Source: a bacterium (GTDB taxonomy: Bacteria; Bacteroidota; Ignavibacteria; UBA10030). From it: DNA of 64,000 nucleotides. The notes under the pieces are model-generated. The model was given only the letters and a program-made list of their open reading frames with translations, was not told where the DNA came from and searched no databases. Of the stretch, positions 33,369 to 49,095 are shown piece after piece. The position numbers and the translations under genes are program-made. Where the stretch lies: positions 32,001 to 96,000 of the forward strand of contig JAZDJN010000016.1 of the NCBI GenBank assembly GCA_043803945.1. Reading direction: 5' to 3'. Each line of letters opens with the position of its first letter. Position 1 is the first letter of the stretch.

Positions 33369-36300
33369 TTACCCCAGCGCCTCACTACACACTATTCTTG
33401 GGATATCTTTAGAACGATTTTCCAATTCATCCGCAGAATCTATTCGTTCTTGAATATTGTGTTGATGGTACAAACGAGACAAAGATTTGAGAAGTGATTT
33501 TCCGGTTACTCCGTTTCGACGAAGAAGATTCAACTCCCGGTTTACAGCAGAAGTCTGTGATGAGCGGAATGCTTTTTCCAAAATATTTATTTGTGCCTTT
33601 TCATCTTCATCCTCTGCAATCTTGAAAAGCATTCGGAGTTCACGAATAATGTATCGCTGTGATTGAGTTAATGAGACCGATTGGTCACGTTCAACAGCCC
33701 TTTGCTTTACCTCCTCATCAAATGCTTTTTTCACACTTATAACAATTGTATTGTGACCTATCGGTAATTTTCCACCCGGTTCCCGTTCGCCCACCTTTAC
33801 AGATCCAAGTATTCTGGGTAAATCTCTCGAAATTATTTTTCCATCTGAATCAGTAAGGAACAGTTGCTTATATGTCCCCGACTTTCAGAAGACAAATGTT
33901 CCTTTCGTACTCATAGTCTTTTTTGCCGTCCTAATACCATCACGGAGATTACTGATCCGCTCATATTCAGAGGGATTTTCCTTTCTCAATTGACGCATAA
34001 TTTCTTCTGCTTCATTGAGGTCGAGCATTTCACCTTCTTCATCCTCGAATAAACTTAATTGATCACCCCTCTTCTCATAGATAGCATACATTGCCTCTTC
34101 ATTTAACTGCTCTGTTTTATCAAGTATCTGTGCATCTTCACCGATTGTATCATGGATTTCCTGGATGCGATTGTGTAAGGTCTGTTTCAGTCCCAGGTTC
34201 TTATCGATACCTGTCTCCGGCAAGAAATTGTAGCCCCACACTACAAGATTCTCCGAACCTATACGATCAATTCGACCAAATCGTTGAATGAGGCGCACTG
34301 GATTCCAATGGAGATCATAATTAATCATCTTGTCACAATCCTGAAGATTGAGTCCCTCTGAGAGAATATCCGTGGCAATGAGCAAATTGATTTCAGTTTC
34401 TCCACGAGAGAATATGTAATCTGGATTTGACTTGGGGGAGAACCTGCCAACAACTTTTGTTTTACTTTTATCTCCACTGTAGATCACCTCAATCTCTGAT
34501 TGCTTTTGCCCTGGATTCAGATTATCAAAGAGATATTGTGCTGTATCGGAGTACTGAGTGAAGATAAGTAGTTTCCCATTTTTCAACGCATCCTGCTTTA
34601 ACCATGCAAATAATGTTTGCAGCTTTGCATCTTTTTCCGGAGTTATCTTTTCAACGATTGCCAACATTTCTTCGAGCAATCCCAGATCGTGCTTCACATC
34701 CTGTTTCAACTCTTCTGCTTCAAAATCATCAATCCGATATTTCTCACTTGCTTCAGTTAATGCGGTATAGAGGTCCGCCTCTCCATATTTGTCGGACTCA
34801 TAAAGGATGGCCTGCGCATCATCTCCTGCAGGGACAATTCCATTCTGCAGTGATTTCAAGAACGCTTTATGAATTCTGATCATTCTTTTCAATGTCTCAC
34901 AGAATGCGTAGACACTCGATTCGAACCGTTTGAACAGGAGTGTACGGATCAATCCATGCAAATTAGCACCGGCACGATGAAGATCTAAATATGGATATTT
35001 CTTCTGTTTTTCTTTCACAACATAATGCCATAGGCCATAGCGAGCGTAGAGTAATTCTTTTTGATTACTGCTTTTGCCTTCACGCTTCGGCTTTCCAAGA
35101 TAGCTGCGGAGTTTTTGATATAAACCGCTGTACGTATCTTCAATGCTATATTCTATGGTTTCTAATTCTCGTTTAGGGAAGAATTGATGCCTCCCGCTGA
35201 CAATGACATAGGCTCGTCTCTTACCAGATTTATATTCATCGAAGCGGTTCGGATCAATTGGCTGTTGCGTTTCACTGTTGAATCCGTACCATTTAAGAAT
35301 ATGATTGCGCGTACGGCGAATGAGGATATGAACCAGTAAATCCTGCAGGCGCCTCTCACCTTTTTCAATAAGATCGAAATACTTTTTTAAATCCTGTGGA
35401 TCGATAGGAAGATCGGTTTTATCCTCGGTATGAAATAGCTTGATCTGGTTATAGACATCGGTGACCGCTTTATTGCGTGGTGTTGCCGTGAGAAAGACAC
35501 TTCTTTTTCTTCCTGCACTCAGATATGCTTGCAGCATTTCGTAGCGCTGGGTTGTGTGATGCCGGAAATTGTGGCTTTCATCCACAAGAACAAAATCTCT
35601 GTCGCGATATTTCACATCATCGAGAAGAATATTCTTACCTGCTTCCTCTTGTTCTCTCAAATATCCCATTGAGAGGACGCGCGCATTCAGTTGATAGAGC
35701 TCGTTATATCGCTCCCACATATCGACAAGAGTCGCAGGACAAATAACAAGAGGGCGCGCATGATCTGTCCGTTCAAAGTGTTTGGCAATCGCGGCACCGA
35801 TATAACTCTTTCCCATACCGACAACATCGGCAACGAAAACGCCAGAATATTCTCGAATGATTTGCACCGCTTGCTTTACTGCAACACGCTGAAAATCCGC
35901 CAGCCTGGATGTAATTTCATCATCCCAAAGAATATCTGTTCCTTCACTTTCCTCAAGACGATCGCGGACAAGCTCGTAGAGAGTTTTCATATAAATATCA
36001 TATGGGCGCACCGGAGCCATAGCCCACGATTGCTTCAATTCAGTCATTAACGATTCATCAAAATCTTTTGCTTCATTCCAGAGATCATCGAACCATCGGG
36101 TAAGCTCGGCATGGTTATCCTCACCGTGTACTACGACATTCAGTTCTGTATTATGAGAAATACCGGAGAGTGTAAAGTTAGATGAACCGACAATAGCGAT
36201 ACCCTTTTCATACCTGCCGTCCTGCTTGTAATCAAAAATGTATGCCTTTGCATGAAGACGGCCTTTCGTATAGACTTTTACCTTTAGTTTCTTCTGCTCA

Positions 36301-36686
36301 ATAAGCGAGGCGACAGTAATGATCAGTTCCTCGCTTGCATCTGTTTGATCCATAAGCGAGACAGCTTCTTTGACATTTTCAGTGGTGGTTTTGACATTTC
36401 GTGTTTCATCCGAGCGTTTGATGAATTTGACTTGATTCGTTGCTTCTTCAACCAGCTCAAGACGCTTATAGCCCTCGGAGATTTGTTCAAGCGTCTGATA
36501 TTTTGTGGTATTCCCAATAAGCAAACGGATTTCTCCAACCTCATTAAGCTGTTTCCTCAATGGTTCAAAACCAGAGAGGAAGAAGTAACCAACAGCAAAC
36601 TTGGCACGTTCACTGGATGGCAAAATGCGGAGTATATGATCTATAAGTTTTTCGTTTCGGTTATCGATGATGTCATGTTGTGGCAT
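33369..36686 (-). CDS. PLD (HKD) nuclease-SNF2 helicase fusion, interrupted by an in-frame TGA at 33885-33887
   Basis: LHAKAYIFD...GSSNFT (PLD); ADVVGMGKS, VDESHNFR, LTATP, LSEGLNLQ, QRFGRIDRIG. ORF 33369-33794 is in the same frame with no other stop in between. Confidence 0.88.
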
Positions 36687-36870
36687 TTCGCGGCTACTCT
36701 TTATGTTTAATTATTTGCTTTTTTAACGGAAACTGCTTACTTTAGTGCCGGAGTTTTTACTCCAGCCCCCATACAATGAGAAATTTGTATGATAAGCCCT
36801 CAATTGAAGAGGGCTTGTTCATTACATGACAGATAAAATGTTCGAATTATTAATAATCGCTAAGAGCCGG

Positions 36871-36899
36871 TTGATTCTCATCTCGATATCCGCTAATTT
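36871..36899 (+). promoter_or_regulatory. Putative promoter of the Panacea TA pair
   Basis: TTGATT-N17-TAATTT just upstream of ATG 36911. Confidence 0.5.
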
Positions 36900-36910
36900 C
36901 AAATAGGCAG

Positions 36911-37516
36911 ATGACAAACATAACAATGCAATTGAATAACATTCATAGAGAAAAACTCCTCAACGCAATTCTCCTCTTTTCCAGAAAGACCAAATGTCCT
37001 TCCTTAGTGAAGATGTTCAAGCTGCTCTTCTTCCTTGATTTTTATCACTTCAAGCTCACGGGAAGAACTGTCACCGATCTCGATTATTATGCTTTGCCGT
37101 TTGGTCCGGTTCCAACCGATTTCTACAATGAGATCAAGGATGGCACTGTTCCCCCCGATATGGATCATTCATTTGCACTTGTACCATTGCAGACCGAACG
37201 CGGCACTCCAGCTTTTGAATTCAAATCAAAGAAACCTGCTGATCTCTCTGTGTTCTCACCTCGTGAGCAAAAGCTGCTCGATGATCTTGCTTTTGCTTTC
37301 AAGGATATTACTCCTTCCCAGATGACTGAGATTTCCCATCTGAAAAACCAGCCATGGGATAAAACTATAAAGGGCAAAGGCGCGAATACACTGATCGATT
37401 ACATGCTTGCCATTGACAACGAGGCAACGATTTCGATGGATGATGCTCGTGCCATGCTAATTGAGCATCGAGAGATGGCAAAGAATTTTTCGGTGAAACA
37501 CCATCTCTCAAAATAG
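36911..37516 (+). CDS. Panacea-domain (DUF4065/SocA-like) antitoxin
   Basis: KLLNAILLF, KMFKLLFFLDF.HF..TGRTVT...YYALPFGPVP, EISH....PW. Confidence 0.85.
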   Translation: MTNITMQLNNIHREKLLNAILLFSRKTKCPSLVKMFKLLFFLDFYHFKLTGRTVTDLDYYALPFGPVPTDFYNEIKDGTVPPDMDHSFALVPLQTERGTPAFEFKSKKPADLSVFSPREQKLLDDLAFAFKDITPSQMTEISHLKNQPWDKTIKGKGANTLIDYMLAIDNEATISMDDARAMLIEHREMAKNFSVKHHLSK

Positions 37517-37518
37517 AA

Positions 37519-37932
37519 ATGATCGCCGGTGATATTCTCTTTCATACTGACTTCACCTTCAACGACAAAACCAAAGGTGTAAAACTTCTTATTATTTTAA
37601 ACAATCCCGACTTATCCAAGAATGAGCCATTTCTTGTCATTCGAACCACCTCCCTCCTTAAGGGAAAGCAGATGCAACCTGGTTGTATCGCCGCGTGGAG
37701 ACTCTTTTTCATTCCACCAAGCGAAGGCGAGTTCTTCAAAGAGCCAACGCTCTTGCAGCTTGACGCCATCTACGAAATGGATGCGATAACTGCTGTGAGG
37801 AATGGAATTCATCATACTCTCAAGCAGATCGGACAACTTTCAGCGCTTACGCTCGCACAACTCAAAAACTGCCTGAAACAAATCAAAGATGACATCTCCG
37901 AGAAACACTACAAGCTCATTTTTAAAAAGTAG
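37519..37932 (+). CDS. Putative PemK/MazF-fold toxin
   Basis: GDILF...F.F.D....KLLIILN...LVIRTTS...IGQL pattern; 2 bp downstream of the Panacea gene. Confidence 0.55.
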   Translation: MIAGDILFHTDFTFNDKTKGVKLLIILNNPDLSKNEPFLVIRTTSLLKGKQMQPGCIAAWRLFFIPPSEGEFFKEPTLLQLDAIYEMDAITAVRNGIHHTLKQIGQLSALTLAQLKNCLKQIKDDISEKHYKLIFKK

Positions 37933-37988
37933 TGGCATCCGTTCATCATTATTATTCTAGTAATCAATTCCCTCAATCATTGTCCAGA

Positions 37989-38033
37989 TATTTTTTCATC
38001 GCGATTATTGAAAACGTCATCTTAAGGCGTCAT
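37989..38033 (-). pseudogene. Degenerate copy of the helicase 5' end
   Basis: ATG overlaps the MTase stop (ATGA); reads MTP*DDVFNNRDEKI versus helicase MPQHDIIDNRNEKL. Confidence 0.65.
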
Positions 38034-41000
38034 AATTGTCCCTCAACGATTTCAATCTCTTCTTCGGTCAACCCATATAGCTTGTACACTTGTTGATCGA
38101 TCTGTGCCTCAAAGTCTTTTGTATCATATGTTGGCATTCCCCTCTTTTTCGCCAAAATTTTCTCAACGATTGTAACAAATCGAGACTGGGACTTTTTATC
38201 AAGCAAGTAACAAGGAATAGCATTAAGTCCTTTAACACCTATATGTGGTGTAGCTTTGTTGCCTTTGCGGAGAATCTCTTTTTCAATTGCATAGAATGAA
38301 ATTAACTTTGAGTTTATCAATGCGCATATGTATAGCAGATCATATTTATCATTTTTTTGTGTACCCACCATGATTCCGTATGCACCATATATTCTTTCCT
38401 CTGAATAAGCACACATCAAATATTGACCAGATTCAGGAATAAATAGGCGTGGAACCAGATATCTCTTAGGATCACCAAGGACAAGGGTTTTACCGAAATC
38501 TCTAAGTTCTTTCTCTTTCCCCTGGTCGAAGCAGAAGTAGCCATCGCGATGATCCCATGCGTATGAATACCGGTTGATGGCATGTGTTCCTCCAAGATAT
38601 CTATAATAATTACTGTTCTTCTTTTCTGAGCAGAGAAAACTATCGAAACATCCTCCAATATTCACACCTCTATTGATAGTAATCAGATTGCCCAATACGC
38701 CATCAGCTCTTTCAATTTTTGCGGTTATCTGTCCATATAAAGAGAAATGAAACTCCAGATTTCTATTCGACCGAATTTCTTTAACATTTACTGTTACCGG
38801 TTCTTCTATTTGTCCCTTGTACCATTTAATCGGATACTCCTCTAGAAGTGGCTCGTTTTGAATGGAAAAGATTATGCAATCAACAATTGCTTCAAAAGGA
38901 TGAAGGTCTGTAATTAAGTACTCAATCCTCCCGTTTTCTAAAAGGAATCTACGGACGTATACATAAGAAGGTAACACCGATAACGTCTTATTAACGATGA
39001 AAACAGTTCTTCCTCTCCCAGTAGATATTATCATTGCCCGTTCAGCAAATAAATTCATGCTGTTGGTACGATCACTTTCGTTGAGTAATGAGTTGTAGTA
39101 TCGAATAAAGTAACGTTTCTCCTCGAGGGTTAAATCGTGACCAGTGTTACTATAGAATGAGATATAAGGTGGATTTCCAATTACGATATCAAATCCATCC
39201 TTTTCCCTAAAAACTTCCGCAAAATCCAACTTCCATACAAATGTGTCTATGAGCCTCCGAGTGTGCTCTGTTTCTTTTAGCTTTCCTTGTTGGACAGCAA
39301 TAAGTTTTTCTTTCGTATTTTTTGCCGGAAGCAAAAGCCGGTCGAGTTCTTTAATCTCCACCTTCATGGCATCGCGTTCTTCCTCCTCTGCTTTTTTAAG
39401 CCTACGTTCCCCAAATAATCCGCTTCCATATTTTGATTCGTACGCCTCAACTACTTGATCCTGCCGCAGTTTCAGGTAGAATGAAGCAAGATCGCATTGC
39501 TTGGAAAGTATTTTTAGTTCTGCCTCATGCTTCTTTTTCATATCCGATTCATAGAAGTAGGCGTGTTTGTCATTCTGAATACTGTCGATAAGCTGTTTGA
39601 GCTTCTCTCCTTTTTCTGTTACCTGCGGCAAGTTTAAATTTACATTGTATCCAAATAACTGGTCGATAAGACTGTTTCCCTGTCGTATCCGATAGCTTAA
39701 ATTAGGCAGCGGGGGAATATCTTTCCCTTCATAATCCACCACTAATGAGAGCCAGAGCCGCAGTTCACAAATTCGCACCGCTTGTTCCTGAATATCCACT
39801 CCGTACAGGCAATTTTCAATTAGCTTACGTTTGAGTTGGTAATCATAGTTTTCATGTCTTATTTCCTTTGTCCCTTTCAACACGATATCAAAGAGCTTAA
39901 TCACGGCAATCATCTCGTGGAGCATTCCAACAACGAATGCACCGGAGCCAACTGCAGGATCACACACACGGCATTGTAAGACCAATTGTTTCATCCTCTC
40001 AGCTTCCTGCGTAGTAAAGGAAGATCGAAGCCAGGTAAGTTCTTCCTCCGAAATCTGCGTAGCAGGATTGAGTGTGAACAGCTTTTCTATCTTCTCACGA
40101 TTCAAGCTTAGGCTTGTCTTCTCAGTTGCTCCTTCAATCAAATACTCCTTAAGCGATTGCTGGCACATGAAATGAACAATCACTCGCGGGGTATAATAGC
40201 TTCCGGTAGCTTTACGTAAATCGGTTTTGGGATTTTTTTCCAACGTCAAAATTAAGTTTTCAAAGACTTTTCCAAGCATTTCCGGATCGATTGCTACCTC
40301 CATATCCAGTGCTGTATCTTCACGAACGGTGAAGTTATAATGCTCGAAGAGTTCTTTGAACATTTTGCCAAAGGCTTTATTGCGAATCTTCAGTGGAAAT
40401 TCCCAATTTTCTATTTCGAACAGTCCACCGTTGAGGAAGGGAATTTCTCCGAGATGTTTGAATATCACTTCTGAGCTTGCGAGACGTTGGAAGACAGGAA
40501 GGGCTATTTCTGTGTAGTAGGAAATCTTCTCCGGTTGATTTTGGTATCCCTTCTTGAAGTGAGCATAAAGAAAATTCTTGTTCCCGTTCAGCCAGCCCTT
40601 CTTTTGAATGAAGTAGAGGAACATCAATCTGTTCAGGAGAATTTGCGATATCTCTGCCGATCGTTCAGCATATCTTGGATTAATTTCATCAATTTGATCT
40701 TTCAAGTAATCAAATATAATCCCGAATGATTTAAAGAAATCCTTTGTTACTGCTTCAACATCAAATGCTACATCATGCCGTTGCTGGAGTTCGAGGGGCG
40801 ATAGTTTTTTAGCATCCGGCACTTCGAGCATGGAAATGCGCTGAGCCGCTGTGTGCAACCGTTCATCCGGTCCGATGACAATTCGGCGGAAAATCTTGCG
40901 GCGACTCTCCTCTTCATCATACTTCACATTGATGAAGTGCCACTGCTGTTTGAGAGAATCAAAGAAGAGAAAGAGAGAATAGGGATGATCACGGAGAAGG

Positions 41001-41248
41001 TTATTGATAACGGGACGTTCGACACCAAGCAGGAGCTGGTCAACTTCACAATAAAGGACTTTAAAATCATCATGACCAGCAAGGATTTGAAGCTGTTTCA
41101 CCCTGCCATCAAGAGACGATGGGAACCTCTTTAAAGAAAGAGTCTTTGCAGCGTAATCATAATTGAGTAATGTAGAGAAGAGTTTTGCAGCATCATCGTG
41201 ACTTTTCAGGGATGATAAGCGAGCATAAACAGATTCATGCAATTCCAT
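38030..41248 (-). CDS. Eco57I-like N6-adenine DNA methyltransferase with TaqI-like target recognition domain
   Basis: IPFLNGGLFE, IDPEMLGKVFE, GSYYTPR, CDPAVGSGAF, YGVDI, FDIVIGNPPY, IDQQVYKLYGLTEEEI; start taken at MELHES. Confidence 0.9.
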   Translation of the reverse strand: MELHESVYARLSSLKSHDDAAKLFSTLLNYDYAAKTLSLKRFPSSLDGRVKQLQILAGHDDFKVLYCEVDQLLLGVERPVINNLLRDHPYSLFLFFDSLKQQWHFINVKYDEEESRRKIFRRIVIGPDERLHTAAQRISMLEVPDAKKLSPLELQQRHDVAFDVEAVTKDFFKSFGIIFDYLKDQIDEINPRYAERSAEISQILLNRLMFLYFIQKKGWLNGNKNFLYAHFKKGYQNQPEKISYYTEIALPVFQRLASSEVIFKHLGEIPFLNGGLFEIENWEFPLKIRNKAFGKMFKELFEHYNFTVREDTALDMEVAIDPEMLGKVFENLILTLEKNPKTDLRKATGSYYTPRVIVHFMCQQSLKEYLIEGATEKTSLSLNREKIEKLFTLNPATQISEEELTWLRSSFTTQEAERMKQLVLQCRVCDPAVGSGAFVVGMLHEMIAVIKLFDIVLKGTKEIRHENYDYQLKRKLIENCLYGVDIQEQAVRICELRLWLSLVVDYEGKDIPPLPNLSYRIRQGNSLIDQLFGYNVNLNLPQVTEKGEKLKQLIDSIQNDKHAYFYESDMKKKHEAELKILSKQCDLASFYLKLRQDQVVEAYESKYGSGLFGERRLKKAEEEERDAMKVEIKELDRLLLPAKNTKEKLIAVQQGKLKETEHTRRLIDTFVWKLDFAEVFREKDGFDIVIGNPPYISFYSNTGHDLTLEEKRYFIRYYNSLLNESDRTNSMNLFAERAMIISTGRGRTVFIVNKTLSVLPSYVYVRRFLLENGRIEYLITDLHPFEAIVDCIIFSIQNEPLLEEYPIKWYKGQIEEPVTVNVKEIRSNRNLEFHFSLYGQITAKIERADGVLGNLITINRGVNIGGCFDSFLCSEKKNSNYYRYLGGTHAINRYSYAWDHRDGYFCFDQGKEKELRDFGKTLVLGDPKRYLVPRLFIPESGQYLMCAYSEERIYGAYGIMVGTQKNDKYDLLYICALINSKLISFYAIEKEILRKGNKATPHIGVKGLNAIPCYLLDKKSQSRFVTIVEKILAKKRGMPTYDTKDFEAQIDQQVYKLYGLTEEEIEIVEGQL

Positions 41249-41308
41249 AAAGCTCCATTTGGTATTCTGCTGGTGTAGAGAATGGAGCTTCGGTTGGTGT
41301 CGTTCATC

Positions 41309-41383
41309 TGTCATTCCCGCGTAAGCGGGAATCCAGCGCCTTACGGAGTGAGGCACTGGGTGCCCGCGTTCGCGAGCACGACA
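41309..41383. repeat. dRS3/RPE-like palindromic doublet
   Basis: tgtcattcccgcgtaagcgggaatccag ... ctgggtgcccgcgttcgcgagcacgaca. Confidence 0.75.
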
Positions 41384-41484
41384 GAAAATCTTTTTCGGCT
41401 TCTTTGGTTCAGGGAGTATTTGGAGTTGACCGGCACTTACAATTCTTATGCCTTACAAAGTGACGGTCAACTATCGAGTCCAAT

Positions 41485-41512
41485 AAAAAAGGGTGCATCT
41501 TGCGATCACCCT
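41485..41512 (-). terminator. Intrinsic terminator
   Basis: AGGGUG-AUC-GCAA-GAU-G-CACCCU-UUUUU. Confidence 0.7.
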
Positions 41513-41637
41513 CTCTGCGGGACACGACTCCCGGACCAAAAGATGAACGAAGTGCACCCCTTTCGGGGCGCATCCTCGATCTGTGTCTTTGGTCTTGAAT
41601 TATCGTGTTTTCAGAGAGACAGCAGCCGAAGCTGAGC
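41485..41637 (-). ncRNA. Candidate ~150-nt structured RNA / attenuator leader
   Basis: Minus-strand cUUCGg hairpin, long interrupted stem capped by GAAA, then a GCAA-capped hairpin followed by U6. Confidence 0.6.
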
Positions 41638-41657
41638 CAAATATGTTTTATCGTTTG

Positions 41658-41703
41658 GCGAAGTCCCGCACCCTGAGTTTATCGAAGGGTGGCGGGACTA
41701 CGC
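41658..41703. repeat. REP-like palindrome with a nested hairpin
   Basis: gcgaagtcccgc-accctgagtttatcgaagggt-ggcgggactacgc. Confidence 0.55.
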
Positions 41704-41866
41704 ATTAGTTCATAAGTTTTAAGTCTATGAGTAAAAGATTCCTCTAATTGTAAATTATCATTGAATTTTGTTGCTCACCTCTTCTATAGGTTGCCTCTCT
41801 TGTCTGGCTACCTGAAGATCTAATATTAACGCATCAGGATGATCGACTGACTCTAGAATACTGATG

Positions 41867-42076
41867 TCACGCAAACATCAATCTCCCCTTTGGTATCGGG
41901 ATTTCTTTGCCTTCCTCTTTCGCAATTTCAATCCATTCCTGAATAACAATTTCAACATTTTTCATAGCATCGATGTAGGTTTCTCCATCTGCCATACAGC
42001 CCGGAAGCTCGGGGACCTCAGCGATAAACGCCTTATCTTCTTCACTCCAATAAATGATGACTTCATATTTACTCAT
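41867..42076 (-). CDS. HicB-family antitoxin (short, orphan)
   Basis: YEVIIYWSEED..FIAEVPELPGCMADGET...IPIP. Confidence 0.9.
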   Translation of the reverse strand: MSKYEVIIYWSEEDKAFIAEVPELPGCMADGETYIDAMKNVEIVIQEWIEIAKEEGKEIPIPKGRLMFA

Positions 42077-42356
42077 TGGCATCCGATTGTGCGAGCAAAA
42101 TAATCTCGAGCATTTTTTCGTATCTATCCATAACAATCCCTGTTGCAATATACAAAAACTAGAAGAAAATCCATCTTCTGTTTTCTATGAATATCAACTT
42201 CTGCAGTGAGAAAATGGGATGCAGTCCGGTGCAATTATTAATATGCTATATTGGTAAGAAAGAGATGTAGAGAAAAAAAAGTCTGACTTTATTTAAAGGA
42301 TCTCCCTACATAAAAGTCGGACTTTTTGCCCGTAGTCATTATCCCTTCCAACTTGC

Positions 42357-42393
42357 CATAATCTCGCCGAAACACTCCAGGCCGCTTGGGATA
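42357..42393. repeat. 37-bp exact direct repeat of the oxidoreductase 3' end (43728-43764)
   Basis: cataatctcgccgaaacactccaggccgcttgggata occurs at both positions. Confidence 0.95.
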
Positions 42394-42422
42394 GCACATT
42401 AATAAACTTGCTTGGCAGTAAC

Positions 42423-42635
42423 CTATTGTATCACCACATACTCAGCAATGGATGTCGATTCAGGAACCGGCAGATTGTCTTGCTTCATTCCCTGTATATG
42501 CAACTCGATTGCTTGATGCATATTTCGTTCCGTCTCTTCTTTCGTCGCTCCTGTCGCTACGCAACCCGGTAGATCGGGTGAATAGGCGGAGAAGTTGTTG
42601 TTCACTTTTTCTACGACAATAAGAAATCGATACAT
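42423..42635 (-). CDS. HicB-family antitoxin (short, orphan)
   Basis: FSAYSPDLPGCVATGAT.EE....M..AI..H. Confidence 0.9.
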   Translation of the reverse strand: MYRFLIVVEKVNNNFSAYSPDLPGCVATGATKEETERNMHQAIELHIQGMKQDNLPVPESTSIAEYVVIQ

Positions 42636-42713
42636 CTAATTTTCCCTCGATTAAAAAGTTACCTTTAATATACAATCGTTTTTCACCTCGCACCCGATGT
42701 TTGTAAAATACTA

Positions 42714-43085
42714 TCAAAAACCACTTTGCTGATCATCGTGTTTCAAGTTATGTAGCACTTCTTCAAGCTGTTGAATCAATACCGGCAAGTCCACATGCAC
42801 AATCTGCCAAAGAATATCATAGTCTACATTTTCATAAGCATGGATAATGCGATTTCGTGTTCCTACAATATTCTTCCAAGGAATTATGGGAAACTGCACT
42901 TTTATTTCTTCCGTGACCTTTGAGGCAGCTTCACCGATAATTTCTATAAGTCGTACAAGTGCCAACGCCAATTGTTCGTCTGTATCAAGGTCAATGCGAC
43001 TCTTTGTTTGAGTAAATAGGACTGCTTTTCTTGCAGCATCAGCCATATGGCGAATACGAATCGTGTCTGATTTACGATTTGCCAT
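42714..43085 (-). CDS. HepT-like (DUF86) HEPN ribonuclease toxin
   Basis: LIEIIGEAA, PWKNIVGTRNRIIHAY (Rx4HxY). Confidence 0.92.
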   Translation of the reverse strand: MANRKSDTIRIRHMADAARKAVLFTQTKSRIDLDTDEQLALALVRLIEIIGEAASKVTEEIKVQFPIIPWKNIVGTRNRIIHAYENVDYDILWQIVHVDLPVLIQQLEEVLHNLKHDDQQSGF

Positions 43086-43383
43086 AAACACTTGTCGCTT
43101 CTTTTACGATAGCATCTCGAAAATATTTGCTTAAACTGTTTTCAGTGTGCAGGTCAACAGTGCGGCCGAAGAGTGTCGTAAGTTCTTCCTGAATCTGAGC
43201 AAATGAGAAACCAGGAACGTGCCCCGATTCGAACTTGACGAGCAGATCGAGATCGCTGTCCGAACTACTATCTCCATGAAGTACAGATCCAAAGAGTGAT
43301 AATGTCTGGATATGGTATTCCCGGCATATATCTTCAAGTGTATTTGCACGGATGGCAGGGAAATATGTCAATAGTTGTTCCAT
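43072..43383 (-). CDS. MntA-like minimal nucleotidyltransferase antitoxin
   Basis: LFGSVLHGD....SDLDLLV, GRTVDL; overlaps the HEPN gene. Confidence 0.92.
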   Translation of the reverse strand: MEQLLTYFPAIRANTLEDICREYHIQTLSLFGSVLHGDSSSDSDLDLLVKFESGHVPGFSFAQIQEELTTLFGRTVDLHTENSLSKYFRDAIVKEATSVYGKS

Positions 43384-46013: not shown

Positions 46014-48905
46014 TTACCGGATCAGCGCCCCCGCGATCACATCGTGCACTTCGGGCCGAACCCGTGAAATTTTGGAATTCTCTCTTGTGGGATAAACCCG
46101 ATTCGTGAGAAAAACAATAATCAAATTCTTTTCAGGATCTACTGCCACAGAAGTACCGGTAAATCCTGTATGAAGAAATGTCGAATCGGAGAGAAGATTT
46201 CCAGCCCAGGAGCGTTCGTGATTTTTCGTATCCCAGCCTATTCCGCGTGTACTTTGGAGAGACTGGCGCTTTGTGAACGAATCGATGATTGTCCTCTCGA
46301 GGTACCGCTCGCCTCCATAGATTCCGCCATTGAGTATCATTTGAAGAAATGTCGTCAGATCAGAGGCTGTTGAGAACAGCCCAGCATGACCGGACACACC
46401 ACCCAGGACGGAACAATTTTCATCATGAACGGTCCCCTGCACTGCCTTTCCCGTTTTTCGCCAGAATGTATCGACTTCGGTCGGCGCGATTCTATTCCAG
46501 AGACGTTGGGGCGGATTATACATCGTGTTCATCATTCCAAGCGGTTTGAAGAACACCGAATCAACATACCGATCAAGCGGTACATTTGTAACACGCTCAA
46601 TAATCTTTCCCATCGTAATCAATCCGAGGTCGCTGTAAATGGATGAATCTCCGGTCCGATAAATCAGCGGTGTGGCATAGATGGAGTCGAGCACGCACGC
46701 CGGCGTATCACAGAAATCGTAGAATCGCCTCCAAGCCGGCAAGCCACTGTTGTGCACCATCAGATTGTAGAGTGTGATGTGCTGCTTGCCTTGCTGGCCA
46801 AATTGAGGAATATACTTGACCACAGGATCACCAAGCCGGATCTTCCCTTCACCAACGAGTTTCATCACCGCACTTGTGGTCGTAATAACTTTTGTGACCG
46901 AAGCGAGATCGTAGATCGTTGATTGCTGAATCTTCTTCGCACCGGTTTCATAAGTCTGTTTACCGTACGCTTTATGATAGACAAGCATGCCGTTTCGTGC
47001 AACAGCAAGAACCGCGCCGGGAAATGCAGAATCCCGAATCGCACGCTGAATCACCTGATCAACATTTCTGAGCGCCTGACTGCTGAAGCCGGCTTCTTCC
47101 GGAAATCCGGTGCGCAACACCGAGCGCTGCAGTTCGACTCCATCACCGTATTTGAACATCCCAGGGATCGTTATTGGAAGCTTCCCATGAGACTCCGATT
47201 CTCCGAATACAATTTCTGCCGTTGCCTGCTCGATGGCATCATCATCGGAGTAGGCGCAAACATAAGCGTTCATCGTCGGAAGATCCATGGCGATGTAAGG
47301 ATTTCCAAACGAAATCCCGATCATGGATTTCTTCAGTTGAGCAATCTTTGCGACAAGTTCGCGCTGGTCCTTTCTCACAAAACCGGTCATCTCTCCCGAT
47401 CGGATGTGAAGATGAAATTGGAGAATGATAAGTTCCGCTCTCGCTGCACTGGCAAGTGCGTTTTCGAAATGAAGTTTATTACTTGACGAGTTTATCTGCA
47501 TGAACTCGGTGTTCTTTGTGCGATCGTTCAAAAGTGTATGAAAGCTTTTTCCATCAGTCAGGTCTTCAGATTCTGTAATAACGAGATCGAGAATTTTCTT
47601 TGAACTGGATTTTTGCAGCGGGAGAATACTGGTTTGATTGCCAAGGACCGTCACAGCATCGCGAGCGATCTTCAGAGCAAGCCGCCTGTGTTCTTCAATA
47701 TTGACATGCGCAGCGATCGATGCAGGGTCAATATATCTTTGCTGATGGAGCTTGAAACGTTCTTTGATTCTCAGGAGCTTCCGTACGGAATAATTCAGCC
47801 GCTCCTCCGAGAGTTCTCCTTTCCTCACCGCATCGACGATGGCATCGATCGCAACATCAGCATCGACAGGCATAAGTATCAGATCGACCCCTGCCTTGAG
47901 AGCCAGAACCGCAGACTCGCCTGCACCATACTTCATGGCAACGCCTTTCATCTCCATTGCATCGGTTACTATCAAACCAGAGAAGCATAATTCCTTTTGC
48001 AAGAGATCTGTAGTAATTCTCGGAGACAATGTGGCAGGGATTCCAGGGGCCGAGTCGAGCTTCGGCACAGCGATATGGCCGACCATTACAGACGCAAGCC
48101 CCGCTTCGAACGCCGCACGATAGGGTGCCAGTTCCACACTCATCAATCTGGCTTTATCACTATTCAAGGTTACGAGATTAAGATGAGTATCGACATCGGT
48201 ATCTCCATGACCCGGAAAGTGTTTCGCCGTGGCTAGCATGCCGCCCTCCTGTGTTCCTCTGACATACGCTGCTGCCATGGTTGACACAAGCTGAACATCA
48301 TCACCATACGAGCGGGTATTGATCACAGGATTTCGCGGATTAAGATTGATGTCAACCGTGGGCGCATAGTTTTGGTGGATGCCAAGGGCTCGGCCTTCGC
48401 GCGCGGTTGCTTTCGCCATGGCATAGGCATAGTCCGTATTTCGAGTTGCCCCGATCGCCATGGCGGACGGAAAGCTGGTTGCTCTGCGAACGCGCATTCC
48501 TGCTCCGTACTCATAGTCGGCACCGATAAGGAGCGGGACATCGGTAACAGCCTGAAGTTTATTAATCTGGATTGCTGTCTCATAGACATCGCCGACAGAA
48601 AAAATAAATCCGCCAATCTTTCTTTGTGATGCGAGGCGAATCATCTCCTGCCAGTGTTGGTCGTCATCGGCGTAGTACGGTGCTGTCGTCCAGACATGGA
48701 CAAGTTGTGCAGCCTTCTCCTCGAGTGTGAGATGTTGAAGCGTTGTTTCAACCCAGTCGAAAGCCGGCGTGATGATTTTCTCTGCTTCTTTCGGTGGAGG
48801 GGGTACGGGAAGTTGTTGTTCCCGTATTTGCGGCGGGCTGCAACTATTAATAAAAATGAGGCATATGCCCCCAAGCGCAACTTGAATATTCTTCAATCGC
48901 TTCAT
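46014..48905 (-). CDS. GH3 beta-N-acetylglucosaminidase (NagZ-like) fused to a beta-lactamase-fold serine hydrolase (AmiE-like); probable lipoprotein
   Basis: Lipobox-like INSC; ADYEYG, KHFPGHGDTDVDTH, TDAMEM; DLASVTK (SxxK), YSD, GHAGLFS, HTGFTG. Confidence 0.9.
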   Translation of the reverse strand: MKRLKNIQVALGGICLIFINSCSPPQIREQQLPVPPPPKEAEKIITPAFDWVETTLQHLTLEEKAAQLVHVWTTAPYYADDDQHWQEMIRLASQRKIGGFIFSVGDVYETAIQINKLQAVTDVPLLIGADYEYGAGMRVRRATSFPSAMAIGATRNTDYAYAMAKATAREGRALGIHQNYAPTVDINLNPRNPVINTRSYGDDVQLVSTMAAAYVRGTQEGGMLATAKHFPGHGDTDVDTHLNLVTLNSDKARLMSVELAPYRAAFEAGLASVMVGHIAVPKLDSAPGIPATLSPRITTDLLQKELCFSGLIVTDAMEMKGVAMKYGAGESAVLALKAGVDLILMPVDADVAIDAIVDAVRKGELSEERLNYSVRKLLRIKERFKLHQQRYIDPASIAAHVNIEEHRRLALKIARDAVTVLGNQTSILPLQKSSSKKILDLVITESEDLTDGKSFHTLLNDRTKNTEFMQINSSSNKLHFENALASAARAELIILQFHLHIRSGEMTGFVRKDQRELVAKIAQLKKSMIGISFGNPYIAMDLPTMNAYVCAYSDDDAIEQATAEIVFGESESHGKLPITIPGMFKYGDGVELQRSVLRTGFPEEAGFSSQALRNVDQVIQRAIRDSAFPGAVLAVARNGMLVYHKAYGKQTYETGAKKIQQSTIYDLASVTKVITTTSAVMKLVGEGKIRLGDPVVKYIPQFGQQGKQHITLYNLMVHNSGLPAWRRFYDFCDTPACVLDSIYATPLIYRTGDSSIYSDLGLITMGKIIERVTNVPLDRYVDSVFFKPLGMMNTMYNPPQRLWNRIAPTEVDTFWRKTGKAVQGTVHDENCSVLGGVSGHAGLFSTASDLTTFLQMILNGGIYGGERYLERTIIDSFTKRQSLQSTRGIGWDTKNHERSWAGNLLSDSTFLHTGFTGTSVAVDPEKNLIIVFLTNRVYPTRENSKISRVRPEVHDVIAGALIR

Positions 48906-48978
48906 CCGGAAATCCCACAGAGACATGTTCAGTGAATGACCCCACCAAAGACGGTGGCTTCTGAAAAATAAAGAGAAT

Positions 48979-49095
48979 GTCATCCCGTGCTTGACACAGG
49001 ATCCAGATCACAGTCAAAGAACTGGATTCTGGTTCTTCCCCGCCTGCGAATAAGATTCTCTCGAGGTGGGCAGGGCTTCGCTCGACCGGAATGAC
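48979..49095. repeat. RPE/dRS3-like palindromic doublet with an internal insertion
   Basis: tgtcatcccgtgcttgacacaggatccag ... ctggattctgg ... ccggaatgac. Confidence 0.6.

Follow-up and report, generated by a model that had tools for sequence, protein, structure and literature searches.

Analysis of a 64,000-nt stretch of contig JAZDJN010000016.1 (assembly GCA_043803945.1, positions 32,001 to 96,000 of the forward strand), hereafter the window, showed that its minus strand carries, between 41637 and 41485, a conserved RNA that represents a real family rather than a chance fold. The RNA precedes, on the same strand, the gene for a Type IIG-like restriction enzyme-methyltransferase (MTase), and members of the family were found in bacteria of the class Ignavibacteria and in some other Bacteroidota. 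The best explanation, to which a probability of about 0.55 is given, is that of a cis-acting leader whose bistable, terminator-bearing core meters read-through and in which, at restriction-modification (R-M) loci, pairing between the 5' and 3' parts of the leader unlocks a buried ribosome-binding site. Coordinates are collected in Table 1.

A conserved RNA family and its downstream genes

The flagged 153 nt comprise a UUCG hairpin (P1), a long stem of three tiers (basal, middle, and upper) with an apical stem, and a GCAA hairpin that resembles an intrinsic terminator. The first-pass annotation of the window, made from the letters alone, had placed all these elements on the minus strand, and every position was recovered in the sequence and in the minimum free energy (MFE) structure from RNAfold; the U run after the last hairpin, given there as U5, is a U6. 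The MFE was -70.5 kcal/mol, compared with -47.2 +/- 4.1 kcal/mol for shuffled sequences (z -5.7), and 0 of 200 shuffles were as good. The plus strand folded more poorly (-59.3 kcal/mol, z -4.15), as expected if the G-U pairs are minus-strand ones, in agreement with the strand preference proposed earlier. A motif at the 5' side, M1, was unchanged among the relatives found by BLAST.

A second copy was found by BLAST in the same genome, with 84% identity limited to the element, and further copies were found in other genomes of the family and order, with compensating changes in all three tiers. The third copy in this genome, revealed by a regular-expression scan, is more diverged. Exact-pattern scans gave 16 loci in species genomes, nearly all titled as Ignavibacteriota or Ignavibacteria metagenome-assembled genomes, and 28 loci in metagenome contigs; there were no matches to the M1-plus-apex pattern in viral contigs. 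A separate search of E. coli genomes gave no match.

A covariance model was built from 18 subtype-B sequences, with the structure checked by hand, and was then used to align all copies. For the 61 distinct copies, 96.0% of the cells at paired positions were paired, compared with 72.1% in shuffled and about 40% in slid alignments, and two-sided changes were present at 39 of the 49 pairs. The covariation score was 0.633 against 0.199 for shuffled alignments, and none of 500 shuffles reached the observed values; covariation had also been computed earlier on 46 sequences. Two-sided compensating changes occurred at every pair of the basal, middle, and upper helices, and the terminator-like hairpin covaried in all of its modelled pairs (7/7). 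Alignment of subtype B by MAFFT alone, with no model fitted, already gave 11 pairs with two-sided changes. RNAalifold recovered 55 pairs for subtype B alone and just 23 for the MAFFT alignment of all subtypes, because the subtypes misalign.

No match to Rfam 15 was obtained for the window at gathering thresholds, or for the region 41100-42000 at E<=10, the c4 family included. Ten loci with diverged members gave only a tRNA and sub-threshold chance matches elsewhere in the loci, and placement in any Rfam 15 family (c4, riboswitches, T-box, 6S, FopS) was not found. A search of the literature gave no description of this RNA. The family thus appears to be undescribed, as the first-pass annotation had supposed.

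Distribution was assessed with the covariance model in 151 genomes of the same order and 151 genomes sampled across the phylum, and otherwise with the exact-pattern scans. Within the order, 38 of the 151 genomes (26 of 81 genera) were matched, with 58 matches at 1-3 per genome. The phylum-wide sample gave 14 matched genomes, 4 of them in other orders of the class and 4 in other classes. The longest open reading frame (ORF) within 900 nt downstream was co-oriented with the RNA at 51 of 53 loci; of the two that were not (loci carry L numbers), L025 was a start-filter artefact and the other was L055. All three copies in the genome of the window precede an MTase, and an R-M gene was first or second downstream in 28 of 49 scanned copies, the other 12 of the 61 being at contig ends (8) or unscanned (4). 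The R-M genes included Type III mod (with or without res), Type IIG, N6_Mtase, HsdR-like ResIII, and one PD-(D/E)XK restriction endonuclease (REase). The remaining 21 copies precede genes with no matches, or NYN, HTH+M78, HTH+HipA, UDG, PAS, and BNR/T9SS genes. For seven more members, all distant, the downstream genes encode SusC-like receptors (three cases), a BNR protein, a zinc-ribbon protein, or unknowns. The proposed link to restriction therefore holds, while a role specific to restriction does not, since diverged members stand before NYN, HipA/HTH, UDG, BNR/T9SS, and SusC-like genes. In diverged members the gene begins 12-60 nt past the U run, which leaves little room for a further promoter. 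Upstream neighbours vary between loci.

Three of the distant members (L097, L098, and L099; 37-39 bits) come from other classes of the phylum, and their RNAs lie about 380-465 nt upstream of genes for SusC-like TonB-dependent receptors (CarboxypepD_reg + Plug).

Alternative pairings in the core and at the start codon

The 3' strand of the apical stem (AAGGGGUGCA) is complementary to the 3' arm of the terminator-like hairpin (UGCACCCUUU), with a duplex energy of -15.5 kcal/mol. An uninterrupted Watson-Crick run of at least 6 was present in 56 of 60 sequences, and the mean run (6.7) exceeded that of the terminator stem (5.0) and the apical stem (5.6). The helix occurs in at least eight compensating versions, among them GGGCGUG/CACGCCC, GGGUGCG/CGCACCC, GGGUGCA/UGCACCC, GGCGCG/CGCGCC, GGACGUA/UACGUCC, GGACGCA/UGCGUCC, and AGGGCGCA/UGCGCCCU, and across 18 representative versions the cognate runs had a mean of 6.3 against 4.0 for non-cognate combinations. 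Three of its seven pairs in subtype B use bases of the terminator loop, so their conservation is not explained by the terminator itself. The mutually exclusive fold noticed in the first pass is thus a maintained feature, although the strand captured is the 3' arm and not the 5' arm, and the term antiterminator in its textbook sense does not apply.

Another alternative hairpin, Palt, encloses the 3' strand of the middle stem. Its positions were paired in 93.3% of cells, compared with 77.6% in shuffled and 30-55% in slid alignments, and one of its pairs reads CG in 31, GC in 14, and UA in 10 sequences. In an all-against-all scan of columns, a Palt pair ranked seventh overall and first outside the model (mutual information 1.45). 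Palt and the middle stem should be unable to coexist, because by their geometry zero linker nucleotides would be left, which would make the core a conformational switch. Two hallmarks of attenuators were accordingly found at the locus: a conserved alternative structure exclusive with the terminator or its supporting fold, and a G+C-rich hairpin with a U run upstream of a co-oriented gene.

The flagged element, put at about 150 nt in the first pass, proved to be only the first part of a leader that in the R-M subfamily measures about 390 nt and in the window reaches the start codon at 41248; the leader of the window was folded as 408 nt. This codon, and not the one at 41356 chosen by the ORF finder, is the likely MTase start, judging from the conserved GGAGCUUUAUG context. 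When the sequences downstream were read in all loci, three more elements shared within the R-M subfamily emerged, M4, M5, and M6. The consensus of M6 is AGACAC(A/U)CCGAAGCUCC, a loop, and GGAGCUU(U)AUG, so that a GGAG is hidden in a hairpin 4-6 nt ahead of the AUG. In the window this hairpin has a predicted energy of -14.0 kcal/mol, and the paired probability of the Shine-Dalgarno (SD) sequence is 1.00. M6 was present in 30 of the 32 loci having at least 450 nt downstream; its stem covaries (GCUCC/GGAGC to GCUCU/AGAGC in L041) and its loop accommodates inserted hairpins.

The 5' part of M6 (AGACA..CCGAAGCU) is the reverse complement of M1 (AGCUUCGG..UGUCU), and the duplex in the window has -20.4 kcal/mol. 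Among model-found loci, a canonical M1 was accompanied by M6 in 8 of 10, to which L083 adds an CCGGGGCU that pairs through G.U, and a changed M1 was accompanied by the absence of M6 in 13 of 14. Two loci read by eye bear on this: L085 has matched changes (GUAGCAU..GUCUU with AAGAC..AUGCUAC), and L077 has UAGUC..CUAUC as M1, GAUAGACUA downstream, and a GCCUC/GAGGC-AUAUG hairpin of its own.

M5 is complementary to the 3' strand of the upper stem plus GGGAG (-17.8 kcal/mol), and its AGCCGA(A/U), AGCCGAA in the window, is complementary to UUCGGCU of M1 (-12.4 kcal/mol). A cross-type duplex test of M5 gave -18.0 for cognate and -14.1 for non-cognate combinations. M4, just past the U run, is complementary to the 3' region of the middle stem in five covarying versions, read by eye in subtypes B, B', and C and two outliers. 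A closing helix between the tail of M1 and the post-terminator element, suggested by RNAalifold, was judged less likely than this pairing with its five covarying versions.

The unconstrained MFE of the window leader was -167.3 kcal/mol; in that structure M5 invades the long stem and holds M1, and the start-codon hairpin is closed. With M1:M6 forced, the value was -166.8 kcal/mol, a cost of 0.5 kcal/mol, with the long stem intact and the hairpin open, so that the two states have nearly equal predicted energies. Across 28 whole leaders, M1:M6 was present in the MFE structure (at least 5 of 8 bp) in 12 and had a mean pair probability above 0.3 in 16, and in most leaders that form it the SD pairing probability was lower.

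Coding by the leader was considered and rejected. A 54-aa ORF (41573-41409) has GUG or CUG in place of its AUG in relatives, and the AUG in the core of subtype B is AUA in three relatives.

A promoter-like A/T-rich block precedes GCGUAG, the presumed first bases of the RNA, in the window and in most relatives, and transcription of the window copy may start near 41703. A motif TAnnTTTG upstream was not enriched. The further -35 proposed after the terminator (TTGACC, 41470-41465) pairs with AAGAAT at 17-nt spacing (9/12 match), which is at chance level (1 site against 0.9 expected); it falls inside a locus-specific inverted repeat and is not conserved. Four metatranscriptome runs from four studies contained contigs at least 80% alike to parts of the stretch. 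One RNA-library contig of 168 nt spans exactly 41481-41633, and others extend beyond 41481, or as far as 41703, into unlike sequence. Such contigs give no more than a hint of expression; they cannot show transcript ends, and depth and uncovered parts say nothing about expression. The share of the words of the stretch held by sequencing runs was 0.25 for the best DNA run and 0.05-0.09 for RNA runs.

Proposed mechanism and competing explanations

According to the favoured explanation, a cis-acting leader, the core would adopt one of two folds: the long stem with the terminator, or a fold in which Palt forms round the 3' strand of the middle stem and/or the apical 3' strand is paired with the terminator 3' arm. 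The choice of fold would set how many polymerases read into the downstream gene. The R-M subfamily would add a second layer, in which the MTase start codon lies behind the GGAG-burying hairpin, and pairing of M1 with the 5' strand of that hairpin (M6) would open it. M5 could alternatively capture both M1 and the 3' strand of the long stem, and the leader of about 390 nt would toggle between two states, one closed and untranslated, the other open and translatable, presumably in response to a trigger. Gating of the restriction system, by a cis-regulatory or a small RNA, had been put forward in the first pass. The co-stranded position and the R-M linkage were borne out; the gating itself, with termination, read-through, and translational unlocking, is inferred.

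Several observations weigh against this explanation. Alignments fitted with a covariance model are biased towards the structure of the model, the mutual relatedness of the copies makes the counts overstate independence, and M1 was fixed by the search pattern in the exact-pattern scans, so its invariance there is by construction. True covariation of M1 with M6 amounts to 2-3 loci, read by eye, and the predicted ensemble of the window leader is fully closed (M1:M6 base-pair probability 0.00). The M4 complementarity is weak and unconvincing in subtype A, to which the window belongs. The helix between the apical and terminator 3' strands cannot pre-empt the terminator in the textbook manner, because both strands compete only once the terminator is made, and a first duplex-energy test of it, in which loop bases were omitted, was weak (-10.3 against -7.8) and was replaced by the Watson-Crick run analysis. 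The downstream genes of the wider family offer no obvious common signal. The metatranscriptome contigs come from relatives and may be DNA, and some pass the terminator and the presumed start.

The terminated RNA of about 155 nt might instead act in trans as a small RNA (sRNA), its 5' motif opening the SD hairpins at all AGACA..CCGAAGCU sites and so coordinating the R-M mRNAs of the cell. This is unlikely, although it could coexist with cis control in the manner of riboswitch-derived sRNAs. The element does form a discrete unit from promoter to terminator, the latter a strong hairpin with U6, the 168-nt contig matches its extent, the M1:M6 duplex is stable, and M1 and M6 are identical or nearly so across the three loci of this genome. 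However, each of the three M1 copies has an M6-type site 340-370 nt behind it, there is no orphan M6-type target in this genome, and other regular-expression matches lack the architecture. The strict co-linearity with a downstream gene (51/53) and the gene 12-60 nt past the terminator in diverged members also speak for action in cis. Because M4 and M5 begin only a few bases from the U run, the simplest assumption is that the mRNA starts at the same promoter. A riboswitch, in which a small molecule (S-adenosylmethionine or a relative, for the MTase) or an ion binds the internal loops and selects the fold, is a poorer prospect, and we consider it improbable. High conservation of the internal-loop nucleotides (GAAAAC, AAUUUUCAA, GGGNA, and GUNCC) beside freely varying helices would suit an aptamer, as would two exclusive conformations that are both under selection and a terminator available as expression platform. 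The alternative pairings account for much of that loop conservation, however, no known riboswitch class in Rfam was matched, and the mixture of downstream genes (R-M types, NYN, HipA/HTH, UDG, BNR/T9SS, and SusC-like genes, with M78/HTH and PAS) shares no evident metabolite or pathway.

It is very improbable that the element is a non-regulatory part of mobile gene cassettes, for example a landmark for recombination or insertion, or a module combining promoter and insulator. Patchy, multi-copy spread (38 of 151 genomes, 1-3 copies each) and upstream neighbours that differ among loci would fit such a part, as would two leaders 590 nt apart in L023, L055 and L056 on one contig 3.1 kb apart, and a decayed copy beside a duplicated folD 3' end in L062 (563-730, with 480-537 and 1080-1190). 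The G-U pairs and the strand asymmetry nevertheless indicate an RNA, covariation keeps pairing and not sequence, no integrase or transposase adjoins the copies examined, and the complementarity to the start-codon hairpin would be unexplained. In L023 the first leader has M6 but no gene and is followed by a second, complete leader with genes; tandem and remnant leaders of this kind suggest cassette replacement or insertion at these sites.

A broader extension of the cis-acting leader is held only tentatively and is rather doubtful as a whole. The RNA would be a portable, multi-state licence for self-toxic defence genes, shared by Type III, IIG, and Type I-like systems, in which a signal-sensing bistable core couples read-through to unlocking of the MTase start. 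Its terminated form would cross-talk in trans between the restriction systems of a cell, and in distant members the same sensor would serve other accessory genes across Bacteroidota.

Relation to known systems and the surrounding region

The arrangement resembles trp- and pyr-type attenuators and riboswitch platforms in its promoter-proximal leader, its terminator-like hairpin with U run, its covarying exclusive helices, and a downstream gene that often has no room for its own promoter. It differs from them in having no conserved leader peptide, known ligand, protein partner, or Rfam family, and in a competing helix that takes the 3' arm of the terminator instead of the 5' arm. In the rpoS leader, an inhibitory 5' untranslated hairpin is opened by DsrA, RprA, or ArcZ (anti-antisense unlocking). 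Here too the SD and start are buried in a hairpin, and a complementary RNA that pairs with the upstream strand of the hairpin would free the ribosome site; by contrast, the unlocking segment is part of the leader itself, 340 nt upstream, and has M5 as an internal, competing decoy, while action in trans is no more than a possibility. The phage P1 c4 and P4 CI RNAs, named as precedents in the first pass, are likewise small structured RNAs of mobile-element leaders that affect downstream expression, but the architecture differs and no c4 match was found at E<=10, so they are an analogy and not relatives.

Control of R-M systems at the RNA level is known from the antisense RNAs of EcoRI and Eco29kI and from hairpins that limit REase translation, as described in the available text of PMC12707154, PMC3141266, and PMC3113576. 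On these accounts, RNA structure or pairing at the translation start of an R-M gene restrains a potentially self-toxic system there as well, and the antisense transcripts arise from inside the genes of single systems. The present element is a sense-strand, portable leader that is common to unrelated R-M types and stands before the methyltransferase. The modes of control named in the available sections of PMC12707154 are promoter methylation, controller proteins, MTase repressors, and antisense transcripts, and none of the terms riboswitch, attenuat-, leader, and small RNA occurs in those sections. The Bacteroides sRNAs FopS and GibS are, in the accessible part of PMC11697453, trans repressors of about 65-70 nt with a single-stranded 5' seed and a terminator, and they are in Rfam. 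Identity with them is excluded on that description by size and architecture, the present RNA being about 155 nt, built on a long stem, co-linear with a gene, and without an Rfam match.

Devices of this kind are already known; what appears to be new is the family, the multi-state design of its members, and the fact that it is attached to unrelated restriction systems. If the explanation is true, a conserved, structured sense-strand leader common to unrelated R-M types would add an RNA-based mode to those known for R-M control, and R-M safety would have a defined, mutable handle in the M1/M6 pair, the two alternative helices, and the terminator. A trigger that proved to be a ligand or a phage cue would define a new sensor class. 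With its rich covariation and its wide but patchy spread in a poorly studied phylum, the family lends itself readily to an Rfam entry and to structure probing.

Table 1. Features of the leader and of the neighbouring genes in the window
Feature	Position	Strand	Remarks
Promoter-like A/T-rich block (AGGAATCTTTTACTCA..AGACTTAAAACT..AACT)	41704..41745	minus	precedes GCGTAG
GCGUAG	41703-41698	minus	presumed first bases of the RNA; block 41661..41703
Extra hairpin (GUAGUCCCGCC..GGGUGCGGGACU)	41701-41661	minus	about 40 nt; locus-type-specific
P1 hairpin CAGC-UUCG-GCUG	41634-41623	minus	sequence read; part of block 41617..41637
M1 AGCUUCGGCUGCUGUCU	41633-41617	minus	invariant motif (BLAST-found relatives)
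Whole long stem, three tiers and apex	41511..41618	minus	MFE
Basal tier CUCUCUG / CAGAGAG	41618-41612 / 41517-41511	minus	MFE and covariation
Middle tier ACACGA / UCGUGU	41608-41603 / 41527-41522	minus	MFE and covariation
Upper tier GACCAAAG / UUUUGGUC	41594-41587 / 41541-41534	minus	MFE and covariation
Apical stem, G+C-rich, GAAA loop	41578-41548	minus	MFE
Alternative helix GGGUGCA / UGCACCC	41559-41553 / 41497-41491	minus	apical 3' strand / terminator 3' arm; -15.5 kcal/mol
Alternative hairpin Palt, GGGA / UCCC	41519..41532 (41532-41529 / 41522-41519)	minus	encloses middle-stem 3' strand
Intrinsic-terminator-like hairpin AGGGUGAUC-GCAA-GAU(G)CACCCU	41512-41491	minus	local fold -12.7 kcal/mol
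U6	41490-41485	minus	sequence read
Variable filler hairpins	41308..41470	minus	position and sequence not conserved among relatives
Filler inverted repeat	41470-41424	minus	locus-specific; not in relatives inspected
M5 CUCCCUGAACCAAAGAAGCCGAAAAAG	41390..41416	minus	mid-leader
Filler hairpin GUGCUCGCG-AA-CGCGGGCAC	41379-41360	minus	not conserved
REP-like GGAUUCCCGC..GCGGGAAUGACAG	41334-41308	minus	not conserved
M6 GACACCAACCGAAGCUCC	41301-41284	minus	beside start codon
Start-codon hairpin AAGCUCCAUU / AAUGGAGCUU	41290-41281 / 41259-41250	minus	buries GGAG
AUG	41248-41246	minus	likely MTase start; end of M6/lock block 41246..41301
Type IIG-like restriction enzyme-methyltransferase, 1072 aa	38030..41248	minus	Pfam Eco57I, TaqI_C, N6_Mtase
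MNT + HepT	43383-42714		island
Two HicB-like genes	42635-42423, 42148-41867		island
SocA/Panacea + 137-aa partner	36911-37932	opposite to MTase	island
HKD+Snf2 helicase	36686-33885		island; PADLOC C3a139 'HKD+Snf2' 3.4e-85; also DrmD-like

The RNA and the MTase gene, which PADLOC assigned to REase_MTase_IIG (1.6e-70), are surrounded by a defence and toxin-antitoxin island at 33885-43383. In the window the RNA and the MTase start have no ORF between them, and no small HTH gene for a controller (C) protein was found next to the R-M gene, the neighbours being HicB-like, SocA/Panacea, and HKD+Snf2 helicase genes. In many loci of the subtype, a conserved ORF of 121-145 aa (starting MSQPRYDQHGRLLSDAEFIQR...) stands between the leader and the MTase or HsdR-like gene, for example at L020:2275-2643, L034:1431-1805, L032:2393-2758, L059:529-894, and L023:729-1094. 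It gave no Pfam, NCBIfam, or PADLOC match in these relatives and could be an unrecognised R-M accessory or controller.

The extra hairpin at the 5' end is common only to the window, L023a, L036, and L046 and was apparently inserted into the 5' strand of P1. Three other genomes have matches of 93-96% to 26-nt pieces of it at sites distant from any RNA copy, and it may be a small mobile repeat. Palindromes resembling repetitive extragenic palindromic (REP) elements or miniature inverted-repeat transposable elements (MITE), of the TGTCATTCC..GGAATGACA type, occur at variable leader sites in the window and also in L021, L027, L029, L032, L033, and G000:C51. The REP-like copy of the window had a very high summed depth from many unrelated metatranscriptome contigs. 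Elsewhere in the window, a 989-aa ORF (46014-48983) combines glycoside hydrolase family 3 domains with a fused beta-lactamase-family domain (Pfam 1.4e-86 and 1.7e-61).

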